Shown one piece after another: positions 1,062 to 37,976 of a stretch of 64,000 nt of DNA (positions are counted from its first letter, which is position 1; every line of letters begins with the position of its first letter). Under the pieces are notes generated by a model. It searched no databases. It was not told the DNA's origin and worked only from the letters and a program-made list of their open reading frames with translations. The stretch is taken from positions 177,167-241,166 of the forward strand of contig JAMPXW010000002.1 of assembly GCA_023701005.1 (NCBI GenBank), written 5' to 3'. The translations under genes and the position numbers were made by a program. The DNA is from Burkholderiales bacterium. GTDB taxonomy: Bacteria; Patescibacteriota; Minisyncoccia; Phycocordibacterales; UBA9973.

Positions 1062-1188
1062 ATTATTTTAAATAAAAATTATTACTAATAATATAAAATT
1101 ATAACGGTCTAATTTAAAAAGTAAAGCTCTATAAAATCCTTTAAAAACCCAACTACCAAGTGAAAAAGAAGTTTATCCACAATTAAAA

Positions 1189-1216
1189 TTGACAGACTCT
1201 AGAGAAAGCATAAAAT
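1189..1216 (+). promoter_or_regulatory. Near-consensus sigma70-type promoter TTGACA-16-TAAAAT, with a DnaA-box-like TTATCCACA (1173..1181) immediately upstream
   Basis: ttgacagactctagagaaagcataaaat read directly; -35 and -10 match consensus with 16-nt spacer; directs + strand transcription into the GC-rich element at 1246..1400. Confidence 0.5.
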
Positions 1217-1245
1217 AAGAGTGTTCATACAAAAAAATAATAAAT

Positions 1246-1400
1246 TTGATTGGGGAAACTGGTGACCTGCCTCGCGTTGACGAGTCAAGGCGGGAATTCC
1301 AGTACAGTGCCGCTACGGTAAGTCCCGACCTAGGTCGAGGAACGAGTCCGATTACCAATCATTTTGTTTTTCCCGAGCAGGAGTTACTCTTCTTTTTGAA
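1246..1400 (+). ncRNA. GC-rich structured RNA (candidate sRNA / riboswitch-like leader; weak resemblance to SRP-RNA domain IV), class unassigned
   Basis: Sharp GC-rich island (ggggaaactggtgacctgcctcgcg...cgacctaggtcgaggaacgagtccgattacc) in AT-rich intergenic DNA. The 5' and 3' segments are largely complementary (GGUGACCUGCCUCG / CGAGUCCGAUUACC) and internal palindromes are present (ggaattcc, cgacctaggtcg). It is preceded by a consensus promoter and followed by a hairpin + U-tract terminator. Overlapping track ORFs 1173..1358(-) and the N-terminal 66 codons of 1246..1914(+) are judged non-coding. Confidence 0.45.
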
Positions 1401-1407
1401 GACTCAA

Positions 1408-1432
1408 GATTCTGCTCAGCAGAATTTTTTTT
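1408..1432 (+). terminator. Intrinsic terminator-like hairpin TTCTGC-tca-GCAGAA followed by T8; upstream GAGCAG (1375..1380) could form an alternative anti-terminator pairing
   Basis: Perfect 6-bp inverted repeat followed by tttttttt read directly; sits between GC-rich RNA and ATG at 1446. Confidence 0.5.
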
Positions 1433-1445
1433 ATGTTCATAACAT

Positions 1446-1914
1446 TATGAAAAAAACAAAAATAATTAAATTTACAATAATCATAGCCTTCTCTACTATA
1501 TTATTTAGTTTACTTTTTTCTGTTCTGTTCTCATCTTTCAAAAACGAAAATAGAATAAAATCTGAAATACAAAACACAAAACCTCAAAGCAAAAATTACA
1601 AGATAGAAAACGATGAATTAAAAAAACTAATAAAGATAACAGTAGAGATTAATGACAAGAAATACGAAAGCACTCTTCCAGAAAATTCAAACATATATGA
1701 ACACATGGAACAATTACAAAAAGAAGGCAAGGTGACATTTAAATATAAAAATTATCCTGGTATGGGTAAATTCATAGAAGAAATAAATAATATAAAAAAT
1801 GGAGAAAAAAGTTGGATATATTATGTAAATAATAAAAAAGCAACAATCGGAATATCAAATTATAAAATAGAAAATGGAGATGTCGTATCCTGGAAATTAG
1901 AATCTAATATTTAA
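1446..1914 (+). CDS. Small membrane-anchored/secreted hypothetical protein (156 aa); true start of track ORF 1246..1914
   Basis: ATG at 1446 begins MKKTKIIKFTIIIAFSTILFSLLFSVLF (signal-anchor); upstream part of the track ORF overlaps GC-rich RNA and terminator. 4 nt upstream of next gene (operon). Confidence 0.6.
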
Positions 1915-1917
1915 TAA

Positions 1918-3735
1918 ATGAAAATAAAAAAAATATATAAAATAATATTAATCATATCAATAATATTTATAAATTCATCAAGCATAGCAAATGCAGCTGA
2001 TATAAATTTAACAATTAGAAGTGGAAATACTATCTTCTTCTCTGGCCCAGTAACACTAAGAGAACCCGGCAATATAGAATTAAATTCTCATCCATTAAAT
2101 TCAAATAGTGTACTTTCCGTAATTAATGATGCCGACATCTCAAGTGAAGATTTCACTATATCAGATATACAATATTATGATTCGTATGGATCATTTTATT
2201 TGAAATGCATGACTAGTTCTGTCGGCAATGATTGTGACAATTGGCAATATACCGTCGATGACATTTATCCTGGGATAGGAATGGACAAAAAAATACTATC
2301 CGGAGGAGAAAATCTATATGTTTATTTTGGTCCCCAAAACAAGATATTACTAAGTTCTAATTCGATAAATACTAACGAAACAGTAACAGTAACAACTAAA
2401 GAATATAACTATCAAGATAATAGCTGGAAAAAAAGAACTGGAATCACTGTCGGATTAACACAAACAAACCCTGATGATCCGTGGTCTCCTTTGGAAATTA
2501 AAACTAGCCCAGTAAATGAAAATGGAGAAATTACTTTTTCTAACATAGAAACTGGCTCTTACAATGTAGGGGTAAAAGAAGATTTTTATTTTCCAACAGA
2601 AATATTAACAGTGACGACTCCACCAAACATAGGAGGTAGCACTGGAGGATCATCTTTTACCACTCCAGAAATAAATAAAAAAGAATTTAACATAGAAAAA
2701 GCTATTGAATTTTTACTTTCTAAACAAAAAGAAGATGGTTCTTTTGGAGAAGATTTATATACAGATTGGGTAGCTATCTCTTTAACACCATTTAAAGATA
2801 AAGAAAATGTATCTAAAACAATAGAAAAATTAAAACTTTATTTTAAAGAAAACAAAAATAATCAAGATCTCTTAACTGACAAAGAGAGAAAATCAATCGC
2901 CTTGTTGTCTTTAGGTTTAGACCCACACAACACAAATAATAAAAATTATATAAAAGAAATATTGGAAACTTTTGATGGTAAACAATTCGGAGAAAATGAC
3001 AAAGATAATGATGATATTTTCGCTTTACTAATATTACAAAAGACAGGATACAACGAGACAGAAGATGTAATAATTAAAACTATCGATTTCATATTATCAA
3101 GACAAAAAGAAAACGGTTCTTGGGATGAGTCTATCGATATGACAAGCGCAGCCATACAATCTTTAAGTAAATTTAATAAAAATGAAATAATAAAAAATTC
3201 TCTTACTAAAGCAAAAGAATATTTAAAAATAAAACAAAAAGAAGATGGGAGTTTTGGAAATGTTTCTTCAACTGCTTGGGCTATGGGAGGCATACTAGCC
3301 TTATCTGAAAAACCTATAGATTGGACTAAAAATAATAATACACCAATAGATTATTTGACTTCTATGCAAGATGAAAATGGAAACATAAAAGACCCGTCTA
3401 GCTTCGATAAGACTGATGAACATTTACAAAATAAAATTTGGCAAACAGCCTACACTCTTTCAGCTTTATCTCAAAAAACATGGCTAGAGACAATGGAAGA
3501 ATTTAAAAAACCAACATCTGATACAACTGAAGAAAATTTACCAACAAATTTAAAATCAAATATTAAAAAAACAGAAAACAAAAAATCATACAGTAAAAAA
3601 AATACTATCAAAAAAGAATTAATAGATATAAATACAAAGAATCAATCACCTTCAACCACTATTTTGCCTGCTTCTACTTCTACCTTGTCTACTTTTCTAA
3701 GATTTTTCAAAACCGTCTTCGATAAAATATTATAA
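1918..3735 (+). CDS. Secreted protein (signal peptide) with C-terminal prenyltransferase/squalene-cyclase-like alpha-alpha toroid repeats
   Basis: N-terminal MKIKKIYKIILIISIIFINSSSIANA signal. Repeated LSKQKEDGSFG / LSRQKENGSW / IKQKEDGSFG / MQDENGN modules resemble the terpenoid cyclase / protein prenyltransferase repeat (QxxxDGSW/F); the domain family is established, the functional role is inference. Confidence 0.6.
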   Translation: MKIKKIYKIILIISIIFINSSSIANAADINLTIRSGNTIFFSGPVTLREPGNIELNSHPLNSNSVLSVINDADISSEDFTISDIQYYDSYGSFYLKCMTSSVGNDCDNWQYTVDDIYPGIGMDKKILSGGENLYVYFGPQNKILLSSNSINTNETVTVTTKEYNYQDNSWKKRTGITVGLTQTNPDDPWSPLEIKTSPVNENGEITFSNIETGSYNVGVKEDFYFPTEILTVTTPPNIGGSTGGSSFTTPEINKKEFNIEKAIEFLLSKQKEDGSFGEDLYTDWVAISLTPFKDKENVSKTIEKLKLYFKENKNNQDLLTDKERKSIALLSLGLDPHNTNNKNYIKEILETFDGKQFGENDKDNDDIFALLILQKTGYNETEDVIIKTIDFILSRQKENGSWDESIDMTSAAIQSLSKFNKNEIIKNSLTKAKEYLKIKQKEDGSFGNVSSTAWAMGGILALSEKPIDWTKNNNTPIDYLTSMQDENGNIKDPSSFDKTDEHLQNKIWQTAYTLSALSQKTWLETMEEFKKPTSDTTEENLPTNLKSNIKKTENKKSYSKKNTIKKELIDINTKNQSPSTTILPASTSTLSTFLRFFKTVFDKIL

Positions 3736-4271
3736 TGTTTTATTTTATCTAATTCATCATCTATCCCCCATAGATCATATTCTGCTACTTCCCAACCTTT
3801 TTCAAAAATATTTAAATTAAGCGGGATAGAATAACTTCTCAAAGTTTTATTTCCATTATCTAAAAAATATTCATGAAAATAAGACATTACTAATTCCCTT
3901 ATATTTTTATATACAGGCTCTCTATATCTTAAAACAGCATGATTCGTCTTAGATAATGCTCCCCACAAACCATCTTTTTTAAAAGGTGTTATCATATGAT
4001 CAAAGTCTCCTTTTGTTGTCTTTAAATGCAAAATAAGGGGTTTGTAACCATGCAAAGAAAGAACATAAGCACCCAATATAGCTCCTTCTATACAATGAGC
4101 ATTCTTTTCTCTCAAAACTCTAATGGGTGACTTTATCACATTTTTCCCATCTTTTTCAAAATTAAATTTTAAACTATTCAAAAAATCTTGCACCTTGGCT
4201 GGTGTATTTAACCTTTTCATTAATGCTATTTCTTTTTGTGTAAAATTTAACATCTGTGGATAACTGGGCAA
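3642..4271 (-). CDS. Hypothetical protein, possible papain-like (transglutaminase/NAT-like) Cys-His enzyme
   Basis: 209-aa ORF; REKNAHCIEGAILGAYVL Cys-containing segment followed by His/Asp-containing segments; weak fold-level guess only. 3' end overlaps convergent gene 1918..3735 by 94 nt. Confidence 0.5.
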   Translation of the reverse strand: MPSYPQMLNFTQKEIALMKRLNTPAKVQDFLNSLKFNFEKDGKNVIKSPIRVLREKNAHCIEGAILGAYVLSLHGYKPLILHLKTTKGDFDHMITPFKKDGLWGALSKTNHAVLRYREPVYKNIRELVMSYFHEYFLDNGNKTLRSYSIPLNLNIFEKGWEVAEYDLWGIDDELDKIKHYNILSKTVLKNLRKVDKVEVEAGKIVVEGD

Positions 4272-4996: not shown

Positions 4997-6370
4997 TTAT
5001 GATTTACATTTTATACAAGCATTTCTAGCTGGACCTTCGGGAACCATTTGACAATATTGCACACTTGGAACACTTATAAAATTATCACAACTAGGACCAC
5101 TTTCCACAGGAGCTCCAACAGCACCGACACCTTCTGGTAATCTATTTTCTTCTCTGCTTATATCTGGAGTGATACCTTTTGTTTGCTCTTGTATCTGCTC
5201 TCGTATTTTTTCTTTGTATTCATTTGGTATACCTTCTGGTATCATCTTTTGTATATCTTCTCTATTAGGAACTCCATTTTTCATAATTTCGCCATCTCTG
5301 TCTGGTATTTTACCAAAACAAGCTTCTATTTTGGATCCTATTTCTTTTGTTGGTTTAGTTGTTTTATTTAATATATTATTATATTTTTCTTCGCCAATTG
5401 ATGATTTCAAACAACCTTCTACCGTACTACGCATCCCCTCTGGCATCGAGCTAAGGGCCTTCATCATTTCATCTATTCCTGAAGTCATCAACTCTTTGTC
5501 TTTTTCTGAAACTAAACCTTTTTCTATAGCAAAGCTTGAACATAAATCAATATTATCTTCTTTGTTACAAAAATCTTCACATTCTTTTTTTGATTTACAC
5601 CCACCAGGACCAACCCCTCCAGATTTCTTTGCTATTTCAGCATCTTCTTTCGATATAAGTCCAGAAATTTCTGCGAAAGAAACACATTCTGAAAAATTGA
5701 CTTCTTTAGAACAAAAATCTTCACATTCTTTTTTATTCTGACATTTGCCTGGTGTTTTACCTTCTTTCAAAAAAGAAGAAACCTTTTTTGCTTCTTGTAA
5801 ATCTTCTTTTGAAAGAATCTCTGATTTTTCAGCAAAATTTAAACATTCGTCTATATGACTTGTAATAGAACAATAATTTTCACATTCCATTTTTGTCTTA
5901 CAACTACCTGGCATTTCTGCTCCATCTTCTAAAGCCTTCAATATCTTTTTAGCTTCTAAAAGATCTTTTTCTGGTATAATTTTTAATTCATCAGCAAAAA
6001 CTACACATTCTTTTATATTTTCAACTTTAAGAGAACAAAAATTTTTACATTCTTCTTCGCTCTTACAACCGCCAGGAGTCGTTCCTTCAGCTACTCTCTT
6101 TGCTACAGCTTTAGAAACTCTCAAATCTTCTCCTGTAAGGAGTTTTTTTTCTTCTGCATAATTTACACAAGCCACCATATTTACAGTCTTACTACAAAAA
6201 TTTGCACAATCTATTTTGTCTTTACATGAACCAAGTTCCTTTATTGGATAAATGATATTTGTATCACTTACCTTAGGCTTGTACTCTTCTACATTTTGAG
6301 CATTTACAACATTTATAAAAACAAAAGTTAAAACAAAAAATATTCCTAAAAATTTAATAAAATTTTTCAT
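4997..6370 (-). CDS. Secreted cysteine-rich tandem-repeat protein (5 x ~45-aa 4-Cys modules), unknown function
   Basis: Signal peptide MKNFIKFLGIFFVLTFVFINVVNA. Five tandem repeats of pattern G(S/G)CK...EC(E/K)NFCS......EC(V/L)xFAE..xLxxEDL.EAKK. Pro/Gly/Glu-rich C-terminal half ending with another Cys cluster (CDNF...CQMVPEGPARNACIKCKS). Confidence 0.7.
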   Translation of the reverse strand: MKNFIKFLGIFFVLTFVFINVVNAQNVEEYKPKVSDTNIIYPIKELGSCKDKIDCANFCSKTVNMVACVNYAEEKKLLTGEDLRVSKAVAKRVAEGTTPGGCKSEEECKNFCSLKVENIKECVVFADELKIIPEKDLLEAKKILKALEDGAEMPGSCKTKMECENYCSITSHIDECLNFAEKSEILSKEDLQEAKKVSSFLKEGKTPGKCQNKKECEDFCSKEVNFSECVSFAEISGLISKEDAEIAKKSGGVGPGGCKSKKECEDFCNKEDNIDLCSSFAIEKGLVSEKDKELMTSGIDEMMKALSSMPEGMRSTVEGCLKSSIGEEKYNNILNKTTKPTKEIGSKIEACFGKIPDRDGEIMKNGVPNREDIQKMIPEGIPNEYKEKIREQIQEQTKGITPDISREENRLPEGVGAVGAPVESGPSCDNFISVPSVQYCQMVPEGPARNACIKCKS

Positions 6371-17497: not shown

Positions 17498-17634
17498 ATA
17501 TTTTTTATATTAATTAAATTTGTAATGTAATATATTTTATACGTAAAAAATAGATTACACAAGCAACCCCTGTGGATAACTAAAAAGCCATTGATAAAAA
17601 GCCATTTTTGTATTATTGTAATAATGGTAACCAT

Positions 17635-33539: not shown

Positions 33540-33612
33540 AGCCACCCCCGAGGATCGAACTCGGGACCCCGTCTTTACGAAAGACGTGCTCTACCAACTG
33601 AGCTAGGGTGGC
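33540..33612 (-). tRNA. tRNA-Thr (anticodon CGU)
   Basis: Reverse-complement folds as GCCACCC-TA-GCTC-AGTTGGTA-GAGC-A-CGTCT-TTCGTAA-AGACG-GGGTC-CCGAG-TTCGATC-CTCGG-GGGTGGC-T. Confidence 0.85.
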
Positions 33613-33623
33613 ACCCTTTCTAG

Positions 33624-33696
33624 AGCCGTTGCGCGGGATTGAACCGCGGACCTCGATATTACCAATATCGTGCTCTACCAACTGAGCTACAACGGC
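33624..33696 (-). tRNA. tRNA-Thr (anticodon GGU)
   Basis: Reverse-complement folds as GCCGTTG-TA-GCTC-AGTTGGTA-GAGC-A-CGATA-TTGGTAA-TATCG-AGGTC-CGCGG-TTCAATC-CCGCG-CAACGGC-T. Confidence 0.85.
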
Positions 33697-33740
33697 TTAA
33701 CATTTTTAAAAAACAATTCCCTATTTATATTAGTTTATCC

Positions 33741-33772
33741 CCACACCTTTTACAAGTGAAAGGTGTGGGGAT
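33741..33772. other. Stable hairpin CCCCACACCTT-ttacaagtga-AAGGTGTGGGG upstream of tRNA pair; function unknown (terminator/processing signal)
   Basis: 11-bp perfect inverted repeat read directly; followed by DnaA-box-like TGTGGATAA-GGTGGATAA at 33839..33856. Confidence 0.4.
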
Positions 33773-33931
33773 TTATTTTAAATAATTTTGCAAAAAAAAT
33801 CTTTGCAAATAAATACCAAAAATAAAAACAGTGGAAAGTGTGGATAAGGTGGATAAATGAGCTTTATTAAAAAAATAAAAAAATATATAATCTATTTAAC
33901 AAATTAATATTTAAAAAAATTAAATAAAAAA

Positions 33932-37836: not shown

Positions 37837-37976
37837 CCCTCTAAAAATGTGGATAACTAGTGGATATGCTGTTCATTATCTACTATAATATAAGGGTATA
37901 AAAAAATATCGGATACCCGAGATACAGATTTTTTACACCTCGGACATCCGAGAAAGTATTATATATCTTTACAAAA

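Follow-up and report, generated by a model that had tools for sequence, protein, structure and literature searches.

A putative terminating cobalamin riboswitch in the leader of a DUF4430 and alpha/alpha-toroid gene pair

A small transcription unit between genes

The stretch of DNA analysed here (64,000 nucleotides, hereafter the window) carries at 1189-1432 what looks like a complete small transcription unit in front of two genes for secreted proteins. Is its product a small stable RNA, or does it control the genes that follow? The original prediction, made from the letters of the sequence, offered both readings, the second as a riboswitch or attenuator. All the features that it listed can be found, at the positions given for them or close by. 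The GC-rich island is evident, with a GC content of 0.60 in 1251-1350 as against 0.13-0.28 upstream and 0.21-0.32 downstream. The ends of the island are complementary as had been proposed: 1247-1253 pairs with 1355-1361 over 7 bp, followed by two U-U mismatches and one A-U pair. This pairing is the P1/P3 helix described below, which is supported by covariation. The coordinates of all features are collected in Table 1.

Table 1. Features of the leader and of the two genes downstream (window coordinates).
Feature	Position	Strand	Evidence or remark
TTATCCACA box	1173..1181	+	7 nt 5' of the -35 hexamer; conserved promoter-upstream element
Sigma-70-type promoter	TTGACA 1189-1194, 16 nt, TAAAAT 1211-1216	+	11/12 consensus; fixed aptamer distance in relatives
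P1/P3 helix, 5' strand	1244..1253, pairs with 1355-1364	+	Compensatory in 8/10 pairs in A3 and 9/10 in A4; window aligns to R1
J3/4 GGAA	1254..1257	+	Invariant in A3; aligned to RF00174 consensus GGGAA
P4 enclosing L4	1258..1303 (1258-1262 with 1299-1303)	+	100% paired; 3/5 pairs compensatory
Inserted L4 hairpin 'P4b', 29 nt, lineage-specific	1266..1294	+	Base stem CCUGCC(U) with (A)GGCGGG; an insertion in Infernal
P5 and L5	1306..1314 (A1306-U1314, G1307-C1313); L5 UGCCG 1308-1312	+	
P6	1316..1350; base CGG/CCG, 1316-1318 with 1348-1350	+	Internal loop UAA / GAGU
P6b short hairpin	1322-1343	+	4/4 modelled pairs compensatory
B12-box region	1345..1364	+	AGUCCG, J6/3 AUUA, P3/P1 3' strand CCAAUCAUUU; aligns to Rfam consensus AGCCAGGAGACC
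Invariant motif UCCCGAGCAGGA	1371..1382	+	Present in every locus with the platform recovered
Proposed P13	U1371-A1382, C1372-G1381, C1373-G1380; L13 CGAGCA 1374-1379	+	
Antiterminator, 8 bp	1375-1382 (GAGCAGGA) with 1410-1417 (UUCUGCUC)	+	
Spacer hairpin UCUUC-UUUUU-GAAGA, in antiterminator loop	1388..1402	+	Platform MFE
Intrinsic terminator	1409..1432; stem 1409-1415/1419-1425, U8 1425-1432	+	Loop UCA
Regulated gene 1, 155 aa, N-terminal hydrophobic anchor/signal and DUF4430	1447..1914	+	Pfam PF14478, E 5e-12, above cutoff
Regulated gene 2, 605 aa, secreted/anchored, N-terminal beta-sandwich domains and alpha/alpha toroid	1918..3735	+	

Family identity of the leader RNA

The leader belongs to the cobalamin riboswitch family. 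The Rfam model RF00174 matches the window over its full length (model positions 1-189) at 28.7 bits, with an E-value of 1.1e-5 for the 351 bases searched. The gathering score of RF00174 is 31.5 bits and the window falls below it, so that the element is uncalled by the Rfam rule alone. A scan of the whole window at gathering thresholds returned three tRNAs only. RF00174 is nevertheless the only meaningful Rfam match, the remaining matches (E up to 10) being opposite-strand noise. An orthologous element in a Saccharibacteria MAG (L001) passes the gathering score at 37.8 bits, and a cobalamin-clan match above the gathering score (RF00174, RF01482 or RF01689) was found in 28 of the 40 related loci scanned, in each case upstream of the operon and on the gene strand. 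A near-identical relative without the hairpin that is inserted in L4 of the window copy (L035) reaches 42.1 bits, and carriers of an L4 insert (L013 and L029-L031) are likewise below the Rfam threshold. The 29-nt L4 hairpin is the clearest difference between the window and its higher-scoring relatives, and is the probable reason why standard annotation misses the element.

A clade covariance model (R1) was built from a MAFFT alignment of 26 relatives, with the window excluded. Searched against the 64 kb, it gave a single match at 1240-1382 (100.5 bits, E about 2e-25). The same model matches 68/81 related loci, mostly from Patescibacteria, with the same pair of DUF4430 and alpha/alpha-toroid genes downstream. 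From the start of the element to the toroid-gene match the distance is usually about 480-1000 bases and reaches about 1,400; in nine of the 13 loci that the model missed, at most 571 bases were available before that match. The conserved cores of the family, GGGAA/GGUG, GCC-C-AC-G and the B12 box AGYCMG, are present in the window: GGGGAAACUGGUGA, GCCGCUACGGUAA and AGUCCG are aligned to the consensus with posterior probabilities near 1 and are invariant in the relatives. A literature search for cobalamin riboswitches in Patescibacteria/CPR found nothing relevant.

The first of the two original readings was a small stable RNA (SRP-like, 6S-like or of another sRNA type) that has a promoter and a terminator to itself and does not regulate in cis. 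Termination would indeed yield a free transcript of about 210 nt, and a loose resemblance to domain IV of SRP RNA had been pointed out. That resemblance was not borne out: no SRP match appears in 1150-1500 even at E-values up to 10, and neither this region nor the whole window at gathering thresholds has a match to any 6S or sRNA family. The cobalamin model, by contrast, is matched over its full length, the element lies in 68 loci always directly 5' of the same operon and on the gene strand, and its terminator is arranged so as to compete with an antiterminator that is conserved. We consider a free-standing RNA highly improbable. Of the two readings it is the riboswitch/attenuator that holds, as a cobalamin riboswitch with a terminator/antiterminator platform.

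Translation of 1246-1445 had also been named as an observation that would count against a structured RNA. The frame is open here and continues in frame with the ATG at 1447, and the gene caller applied to the public Logan assembly reports a 222-aa product. On this basis 1246-1446 could extend the DUF4430 protein at its N-terminus (ORF from TTG 1246 to 1914, 222 aa). The same frame, however, meets a stop within the riboswitch or the platform in 51/52 unique relatives, which argues that the region is not coding. Substitutions among relatives track base-pair covariation and not codon structure, and an intrinsic terminator would sit within the supposed coding region. In an AT-rich genome a GC-rich stretch has few of the AT-rich stop codons, and an open frame is unsurprising. 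There is thus very little chance that this stretch is translated, and we return to the cobalamin riboswitch.

Structure of the aptamer

The aptamer (about 1244-1364) is a four-way junction of P3-P6. In the 26-relative MAFFT alignment (A3), from which the window was excluded, this structure is 93.1% paired and 16/24 pairs show compensatory changes. None of 500 shuffles attained these values, and slid controls were 21-50% paired. Among 58 distinct sequences (A4) the structure is 96.2% paired, with compensatory changes at 18/24 pairs. P1/P3 is one continuous covarying 10-bp stack, interrupted by neither a P2 arm nor a J1/3 bulge. Its only irregularities in the window are the two U-U mismatches, and the clade consensus has no unpaired nucleotides between P1 and P3. 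J3/4, together with the preceding G, makes up the 'GGGAA' core of cobalamin riboswitches. The A-U pair of P5 is replaced by U-A in 8/58 sequences, and both L5 in the relatives and AGUCCG in A3 are invariant. Beyond its base and internal loop P6 has a 22-nt hairpin only, with no P7-P11 extension; the 55-nt extension in the Rfam consensus is reduced to 8 nt.

The single-sequence minimum free energy fold contains P1/P3, P4, the insert and P6b as in the junction model. In place of P5/P6a it forms a UGCCG/CGGUA hairpin, which was set aside for the covariation-supported junction. In the Rfam alignment the AU-rich leader is given a P2 hairpin and another P1; these were dropped because the continuous P1/P3 helix covaries. 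A pairing between the 5' GUUC leader and the spacer hairpin, seen by eye, fits the window and one relative (L010), fails in two others (L004 and L020), and was not retained.

The inserted hairpin P4b splits L4 into UGA (1263-1265) and AAUU (1295-1298); the L4 region as a whole folds at -12.3 kcal/mol in RNAfold. In 21 unique relatives L4 has its canonical 7 nt. Inserts of 10-36 nt occur at the same L4 position in 8 other unique relatives and in L059. The UGA/AAUU internal loop has no tandem G-A pairs, and a k-turn was rejected for that reason. L4 is normally folded as a T-loop docked to L6 (PMC7367189), and interruption by a hairpin could impair folding or ligand binding.

Riboswitch class and closest known systems

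The architecture is like that of Cbl-II riboswitches, 'IIb-like': the P2 arm is missing, P1-P3 is paired and P6 is short. Cbl-I riboswitches have a P2 arm of the loop-stem-loop type, and their P6 has a large extension, P7-P11 (PMC7367189); this class is ruled out by the continuous covarying 10-bp P1/P3 and by a P6 that bears a 22-nt hairpin only. In Cbl-IIa riboswitches the J1/3 segment joining P1 to P3 is bulged and touches the ligand site (PMC7367189); this class is ruled out by the fully paired clade consensus at this position. In Cbl-IIb riboswitches J1/3 is short, either mismatched or paired, and P6 bears a short hairpin (PMC7367189); the window element shows both. The relatives L009, L011, L020 and L039 pass the threshold of RF01689 ('AdoCbl-II', Cbl-IIb), whereas the best clan match of the window itself is RF00174, and an L4 insertion lies outside the class description. 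Selectivity for AdoCbl has been reported for Cbl-IIb.

To RF00174 (clan CL00101) the likeness extends to the GGGAA..GGUG..CC core of P3, J3/4 and P4, the GCCGCnACGGUAA core of P5 and P6, the AGUCCG of the B12-box, the P3-P6 junction and a B12-related operon. The window departs from it in the 29-nt L4 hairpin, the missing P2 arm and the 8 nt that stand for the 55-nt P6 extension, and its L5 is UGCCG where the family consensus is UCCCG (PMC10327014). The env8HyCbl riboswitch (Cbl-IIa, PDB 4FRN) similarly has no P2 arm and no large P6 extension, and its kissing loop includes a bulge in L13 (PMC10327014). It differs in the bulged J1/3 of its class (PMC7367189), where P1-P3 of the window is paired, and in regulating translation, where the window element has an intrinsic terminator. 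The yvrC riboswitch of Bacillus subtilis (RF01482) shares the short P6 hairpin, and the relatives L008 and L010 score above the RF01482 threshold, but yvrC has a loop-stem-loop P2 arm (PMC7367189) and none is supported here. One may ask whether these elements form a Patescibacteria-specific Cbl-II sub-lineage, in which a P4 extension hairpin turns the L4 T-loop into an internal loop and an invariant UGCCG/CGAGCA replaces the UCCCG/GGG kissing loop. We regard this as a tentative and rather unlikely proposal.

Promoter and expression platform

The predicted promoter with its 16-nt spacer was confirmed as the best site in 1000-2000, matching 11 of 12 consensus positions. Promoters of the form TTGACA-16-TAnAnT, likewise at 11/12, occur in 31/60 unique related loci. 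The gap between the end of the -10 hexamer and the start of the aptamer model is usually 22-24 nt in related loci. Transcription would begin at about 1222-1224, at a conserved GUUC. A T[AT]TCCACA box was found at the position equivalent to that of the TTATCCACA box in 29 unique related riboswitch promoters, and the window holds five exact copies of TTATCCACA against 0.71 expected, all five of them intergenic. The box is identical to the DnaA-box consensus. It could serve these organisms as a general promoter element or as a DnaA-type transcriptional input.

Downstream of the aptamer, the hairpin and U8 tract proposed as a terminator were recovered by a terminator scan (1406-1428 plus T tail) as the sole site in 1000-2000, where 0.4 would be expected. 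Nearly all relatives have a terminator followed by a U-run 3' of UCCCGAGCAGGA. The original prediction also had GAGCAG pair with the left arm of the terminator, and comparison with relatives bears this out. The antiterminator duplex has an energy of -12.6 kcal/mol, as against -4.9 for shuffled arms, and UCCCGAGCAGGA is complementary to the 5' arm of the terminator in 37/40 related loci. These 40 are the loci handled by the automatic terminator finder, which failed on 12 others with terminators visible by eye. Complementarity is kept across two unrelated terminator sequences, AUUCUGC..GCAGAAU and ACUCCUCGG..GGAGU. The antiterminator and terminator pairings are mutually exclusive. At the position of the spacer hairpin, relatives have a hairpin of variable sequence and length.

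L13 is the best partner of L5 within 1362-1446. UGCCG of L5 and CG(A)GCA of L13 can form five pairs around a bulged A at a weak -3.9 kcal/mol; all five are invariant and hence without covariation. P13 has only 3 bp, which are invariant among relatives and so likewise do not covary. In the metE corrinoid riboswitch of Priestia megaterium, experiments have shown that a kissing loop leads to P13 and to the terminator, and that in the unbound state the 3' side of P13 pairs with the 5' arm of the terminator (PMC10327014). A kissing loop between L5 and L13 that stabilises P13, with termination in the bound state (PMC10327014), is the likeness proposed for the window. It differs from metE in its 3-bp P13, in an L13 shared with the antiterminator, and in a bulged A where metE has five contiguous pairs.

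Following this model, the element would be an OFF switch at the level of transcription termination, B12 binding leading to termination. With a corrinoid bound, L5 (1308-1312) would kiss L13 (1374-1379) and stabilise the 3-bp P13. GAGCAGGA would then be sequestered, the terminator (1409-1425 with U8) would form, and transcription would stop at about 1432. In the absence of ligand, GAGCAGGA would pair with the 5' arm of the terminator (1410-1417) and polymerase would go on to transcribe the genes for the DUF4430 and toroid proteins. What we infer in this scheme is the binding of ligand, the kissing loop, the direction of regulation, which corrinoid is preferred and that the proteins bind B12.

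A cobalamin riboswitch could also act otherwise: mainly on translation initiation, as an ON switch, or, in the copy with the L4 insert, as a non-responsive, constitutive leader. The start codon lies 14 nt past the U-tract with no visible Shine-Dalgarno sequence, and in many relatives an ATG directly follows the U-run, so that the terminator hairpin could mask initiation too. An activating corrinoid riboswitch is known (PMC10327014), and L4 is interrupted in the window copy. On the other side stand the conserved strong hairpin and its U7-U8 tract. P13/L13 overlaps the antiterminator strand and not the terminator; P. megaterium metE, which represses, is laid out in this way, whereas the activating cobT is not (PMC10327014). 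L4 insertions are seen in at least 10 unique relatives, which represent two types of P4 sequence and keep the rest of the aptamer core intact; this argues that the insertion is tolerated. We judge these other modes of action improbable. Very probably, the two genes form an operon whose promoter and 5' leader occupy 1189-1432, the leader being a cobalamin riboswitch that acts as a terminating OFF switch.

The genes downstream

The start of gene 1 at 1447 is backed by the N-termini of homologues, which are M-(K/S/N)-K-rich and continue into a hydrophobic segment. DUF4430 has been described as the C-terminal domain of transcobalamin proteins (PMC4350170). A search for literature on its function found nothing relevant. 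The gene 2 product matches the Pfam family SQHop_cyclase_C (1e-10) and, below the cutoff, Cobalamin_bind (5e-5); some homologues of this toroid protein are fused to DUF4430. Its AlphaFold model has a mean pLDDT of 80.5. The top Foldseek matches of the model are generic alpha/alpha-toroid and MG-domain proteins, and complement TED domains and terpene cyclases stand above rat transcobalamin (rank 48). With toroid matches this generic, it is by inference that gene 2 is assigned a B12-binding role, and its product may bind corrinoids. Searches of PDB sequences with the two proteins were uninformative. Among those other window ORFs of at least 150 aa that were scanned, neither a B12-dependent enzyme nor a dedicated B12 transporter came up. 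The association of the riboswitch with B12 genes is by homology, through DUF4430 and the weak Cobalamin_bind matches. The two genes probably encode proteins that capture corrinoids at the cell surface.

Implications

In class and mechanism the RNA holds nothing unexpected and is an ordinary cobalamin riboswitch. For annotation, it is a riboswitch that falls below the Rfam threshold in this copy and that a gene caller has absorbed into a 222-aa ORF. Through it, a gene pair that is widespread in Patescibacteria and carries the annotations 'terpene cyclase/prenyltransferase' and DUF4430 becomes linked to vitamin B12. The combination suggests that these reduced bacteria may sense corrinoids and display proteins that capture them. 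If the insert alters the docking of L4 with L6, corrinoid selectivity or folding kinetics could change, and the DUF4430 and toroid proteins would together make up a split, transcobalamin-like system for B12 capture at the surface. Such a system would give ultra-small, host-dependent bacteria a module for sensing and scavenging B12.

Identity of the leader element

The element upstream of the DUF4430 and toroid genes had been described from sequence as a promoter-driven, GC-rich RNA with its own terminator, either a small stable RNA or a riboswitch/attenuator of the downstream secreted-protein genes; a weak SRP-RNA resemblance was also noted. The sequence bears out the described layout. The promoter (TTGACA-16-TAAAAT, 1189-1216) has 11/12 matches and no better promoter-like site lies within 1000-2000. 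The terminator (1406-1428, then a T-run to 1432) is the sole terminator-like site in the same interval. GC content reaches 0.60 in 1251-1350 and is 0.13-0.32 in the flanks. The leader folds better than shuffled sequences (z = -2.6), and its minimum free energy structure includes both the end-to-end helix and the antiterminator (GAGCAGGA/UUCUGCUC). A conserved GUUC, found ~7 nt past the -10 hexamer in the window (1223-1243 region) and in relatives, is probably the 5′ end of the transcript. An AU-rich stretch separates it from P1, and a search for pairing partners in the window and relatives gave none that was consistent.

At Rfam gathering thresholds three tRNAs are the sole matches in the whole window. 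At the E-value threshold, RF00174 (cobalamin riboswitch) is the sole meaningful match in 1150-1500 (1221-1377, +, model positions 1-189, E 1.1e-5), with 28.7 bits vs. a gathering score of 31.5. The alignment departs from the model by a 29-nt insertion within loop L4 and by a consensus 55-nt P6 extension cut to 8 nt. Among small-RNA models, SRP and 6S included, none matched 1150-1500 at this threshold, and the stable-RNA/SRP reading was dropped. The riboswitch reading is upheld by the RF00174 match over the full model, a clade covariance model and a conserved switching motif. From its sequence, the element is predicted to be a Patescibacteria cobalamin riboswitch of Cbl-II type, its P4 extended by a hairpin.

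Features of the riboswitch region and copies of the TTATCCACA box
Feature	Position	Strand	Remarks
TTATCCACA 9-mer	1173-1181	+	perfect; ends 7 nt before the -35 hexamer of the riboswitch promoter
TTATCCACA, other copies	4255-4263, 17571-17579, 33839-33847, 37848-37856	-	exact
P1/P3	1244-1253 with 1355-1364	+	one unbroken helix; without P2 arm or bulged J1/3
L4 insertion	1266-1294	+	L4 = UGA-[29-nt hairpin]-AAUU
P6 hairpin	1322-1343	+	short; nothing else on P6
DUF4430 gene	1447-1914	+	155 aa; N-terminal hydrophobic segment; DUF4430 E 5e-12
Toroid gene	1918-3735	+	605 aa; SQHop_cyclase_C 1e-10

Conservation among relatives

The toroid protein family is common across Patescibacteria (Nomurabacteria, Paceibacterota, Minisyncoccia, Saccharibacteria). 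The related loci, one from a genome (L001) and 80 from metagenomes (L002-L081), were chosen on protein similarity alone; the RNA thus played no part in their selection. The orthologous leader of L001 exceeds the RF00174 threshold (37.8 bits). Above-threshold matches to the cobalamin clan (RF00174, RF01482 or RF01689) were found in 28 of the 40 loci scanned with Rfam, all upstream of the operon on the gene strand. In a MAFFT alignment of 26 relatives that left out the window, with helices P1/P3, P4, P5, P6a and P6b written by hand, 93.1% of cells are paired and 16/24 pairs have compensatory changes. None of 500 shuffles matched these values, and partner-slid controls were 21-50% paired. A covariance model from this alignment has its sole match in the 64 kb at 1240-1382 (100.5 bits, E ~2e-25). 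The clade model matches once apiece in 68/81 loci; in the set of 58 distinct matches, 96.2% of cells are paired, with 18/24 pairs compensatory. Given the clade-model match and the covariation in relatives, the window's element belongs to a well-supported cobalamin-riboswitch clade. Nine of the 13 misses have at most 571 bases ahead of the toroid-gene match, whereas the element usually starts ~480-1000 bases (up to ~1,400) ahead. L063, L064, L066 and L080 have no clade-model match, although each has 1.9 kb or more of sequence upstream; thus, this riboswitch does not precede every toroid-family gene.

By a rival reading, the region 1246-1446 would encode an N-terminal extension of the DUF4430 protein. 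An ORF from TTG 1246 crosses the riboswitch in frame into the DUF4430 gene, and a public assembly calls its 222-aa product (1246-1914, +; L082:829-1497), taking in riboswitch and terminator. However, the same frame has a stop within the riboswitch or platform in 51/52 unique relatives, contrary to translation of the element with the downstream ORF, which the original prediction had named as refuting it. Every homologue also has a lysine-rich N-terminus and hydrophobic segment equivalent to those from ATG 1447, the conserved start. The 222-aa extension is a gene-calling artefact. A 5-codon mini-ORF (ATG TTC ATA ACA TTA TGA; 1433-1450, +) lies immediately 3′ of the terminator U-tract, its stop overlapping the true start codon (ATGA). 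In L005 and L014, two related loci, the protein truly starts at the equivalent ATG-TTC (MFKKEK...); in the window the start of the gene thus seems to have moved by 14 nt.

Aptamer architecture

Cbl-I and Cbl-IIa were ruled out by architecture, using the classification summarised in PMC7367189. The architecture fits the Cbl-IIb description given there. The best Rfam model differs among relatives (RF00174, RF01689 ('AdoCbl-II') or RF01482), consistent with an intermediate position of the element.

Loop L4 is 7 nt in most relatives, of the form U-N-N-R-A-W-U. Hairpins of 10-36 nt occupy the insertion point in eight other unique relatives, and L059, with a different P4 sequence type, has one there too. 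With the insert, L4 becomes an internal loop; solved structures show L4 as a T-loop that docks with L6 (PMC7367189). Of the visible reasons for the window's sub-threshold Rfam score, the insert is the clearest. The nearly identical aptamer of L035, without insert, scores 42.1 bits in Rfam. Loci L013 and L029-L031, with inserts, fall below the Rfam threshold, yet score ~103 bits by the clade model.

Expression platform and proposed switching

The motif UCCCGAGCAGGA (window 1371-1382) is invariant in every relative whose platform was recovered, and is followed by a variable-sequence hairpin and, beyond this, a terminator ending in a U-run. The motif is complementary to the terminator 5′ arm at -7 kcal/mol or lower in 37 of the 40 loci whose terminator was located by script (window, -12.6). 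Two unrelated terminator sequences occur among relatives, each pairing with a different part of UCCCGAGCAGGA. It thus seems that terminators have evolved to fit the motif, and this singles the motif out as the switching element. Alternatively, UCCCGAGCAGGA can fold into a 3-bp P13 stem (UCC/GGA) whose loop, L13 (CGAGCA), is the best platform partner of L5 (UGCCG), with five pairs around a bulged A. The family consensus for L5 is UCCCG (PMC10327014), and the C-to-G change sits opposite a C in L13. P13 and the L5-L13 pairs are invariant within the clade, so covariation is uninformative for them.

This layout corresponds to that of the experimentally dissected, repressing metE corrinoid riboswitch of P. 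megaterium, in which ligand-dependent L5-L13 kissing stabilises P13 and the terminator forms, and in which, with no ligand, the P13 3′ side pairs with the terminator 5′ arm (PMC10327014). By this analogy, we infer an OFF switch. Bound corrinoid would cause termination at ~1432, and without it polymerase would read on into the DUF4430 and toroid genes. The window's start codon is 14 nt past the U-tract (directly 3′ of the U-run in many relatives) and no Shine-Dalgarno is visible before it in the window, so an added effect on translation is possible.

The 9-mer TTATCCACA, identical to the DnaA-box consensus, has five exact copies in the window vs. 0.71 expected (0/100 shuffles reach five), all intergenic. 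In 29 unique related riboswitch loci T[AT]TCCACA stands at the same place upstream of the promoter, and it also occurs at other promoter-like sites within the loci. Such boxes may serve these Patescibacteria as a general promoter element or as a binding site for a transcription factor. A cluster of three TTATCCACA-like boxes lies at 33735-33856 (TTATCCCCA on +; TTATCCACA and TTATCCACC in tandem on -), between a divergent tRNA pair (33540-33696, -) and a gene from 33932 (+), adjoined by the inverted repeat CCCCACACCTTT..AAAGGTGTGGGG.

Downstream genes and neighborhood

Transcobalamin proteins have a C-terminal domain of the DUF4430 type (PMC4350170). The 605-aa protein matches two alpha/alpha-toroid families, SQHop_cyclase_C (1e-10) and the eukaryotic Cobalamin_bind (5e-5, below that family's cutoff). 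In its AlphaFold model (mean pLDDT 80.5), beta-sandwich domains at the N-terminus are joined to a toroid; the leading Foldseek matches are complement TED/MG proteins and terpene cyclases, with rat transcobalamin at rank 48. The modeled fold is compatible with a corrinoid binder, short of proof. The two domains are fused in some homologues (e.g., P0003 and P0004, by precomputed Pfam domains), which supports their joint working. In some relatives a single 660-820-aa ORF follows the riboswitch (L077:3001-, L078:2692-).

A trypsin-like HtrA protease is encoded upstream on the opposite strand. Downstream, two genes past the operon and likewise on the opposite strand, is a 457-aa secreted protein (4997-6370, -) with repeated cysteine-rich modules (C..C..C motifs) and a weak defensin-like Pfam match. 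One giant ORF (38375-60736, +; 7,453 aa) has no Pfam match in its first 2,000 residues and Bact_surface_Ig-like, Peptidase_S74 (endosialidase chaperone) and DUF4082 in its last 2,000. No B12-dependent enzyme turned up in the scanned subset of the window's remaining ORFs (150 aa or longer). NCBI labels a protein identical to the toroid protein (P0001) 'MAG: Burkholderiales bacterium'. Every close relative with a taxon name indicates Patescibacteria, as do L001 (Saccharibacteria) and the gene content of the window; thus, the MAG is probably mis-binned or mislabelled.

We found no earlier description of this CPR element in the literature. Its worth lies mostly in annotation and in the link it draws between vitamin B12 and a gene pair common in CPR bacteria.
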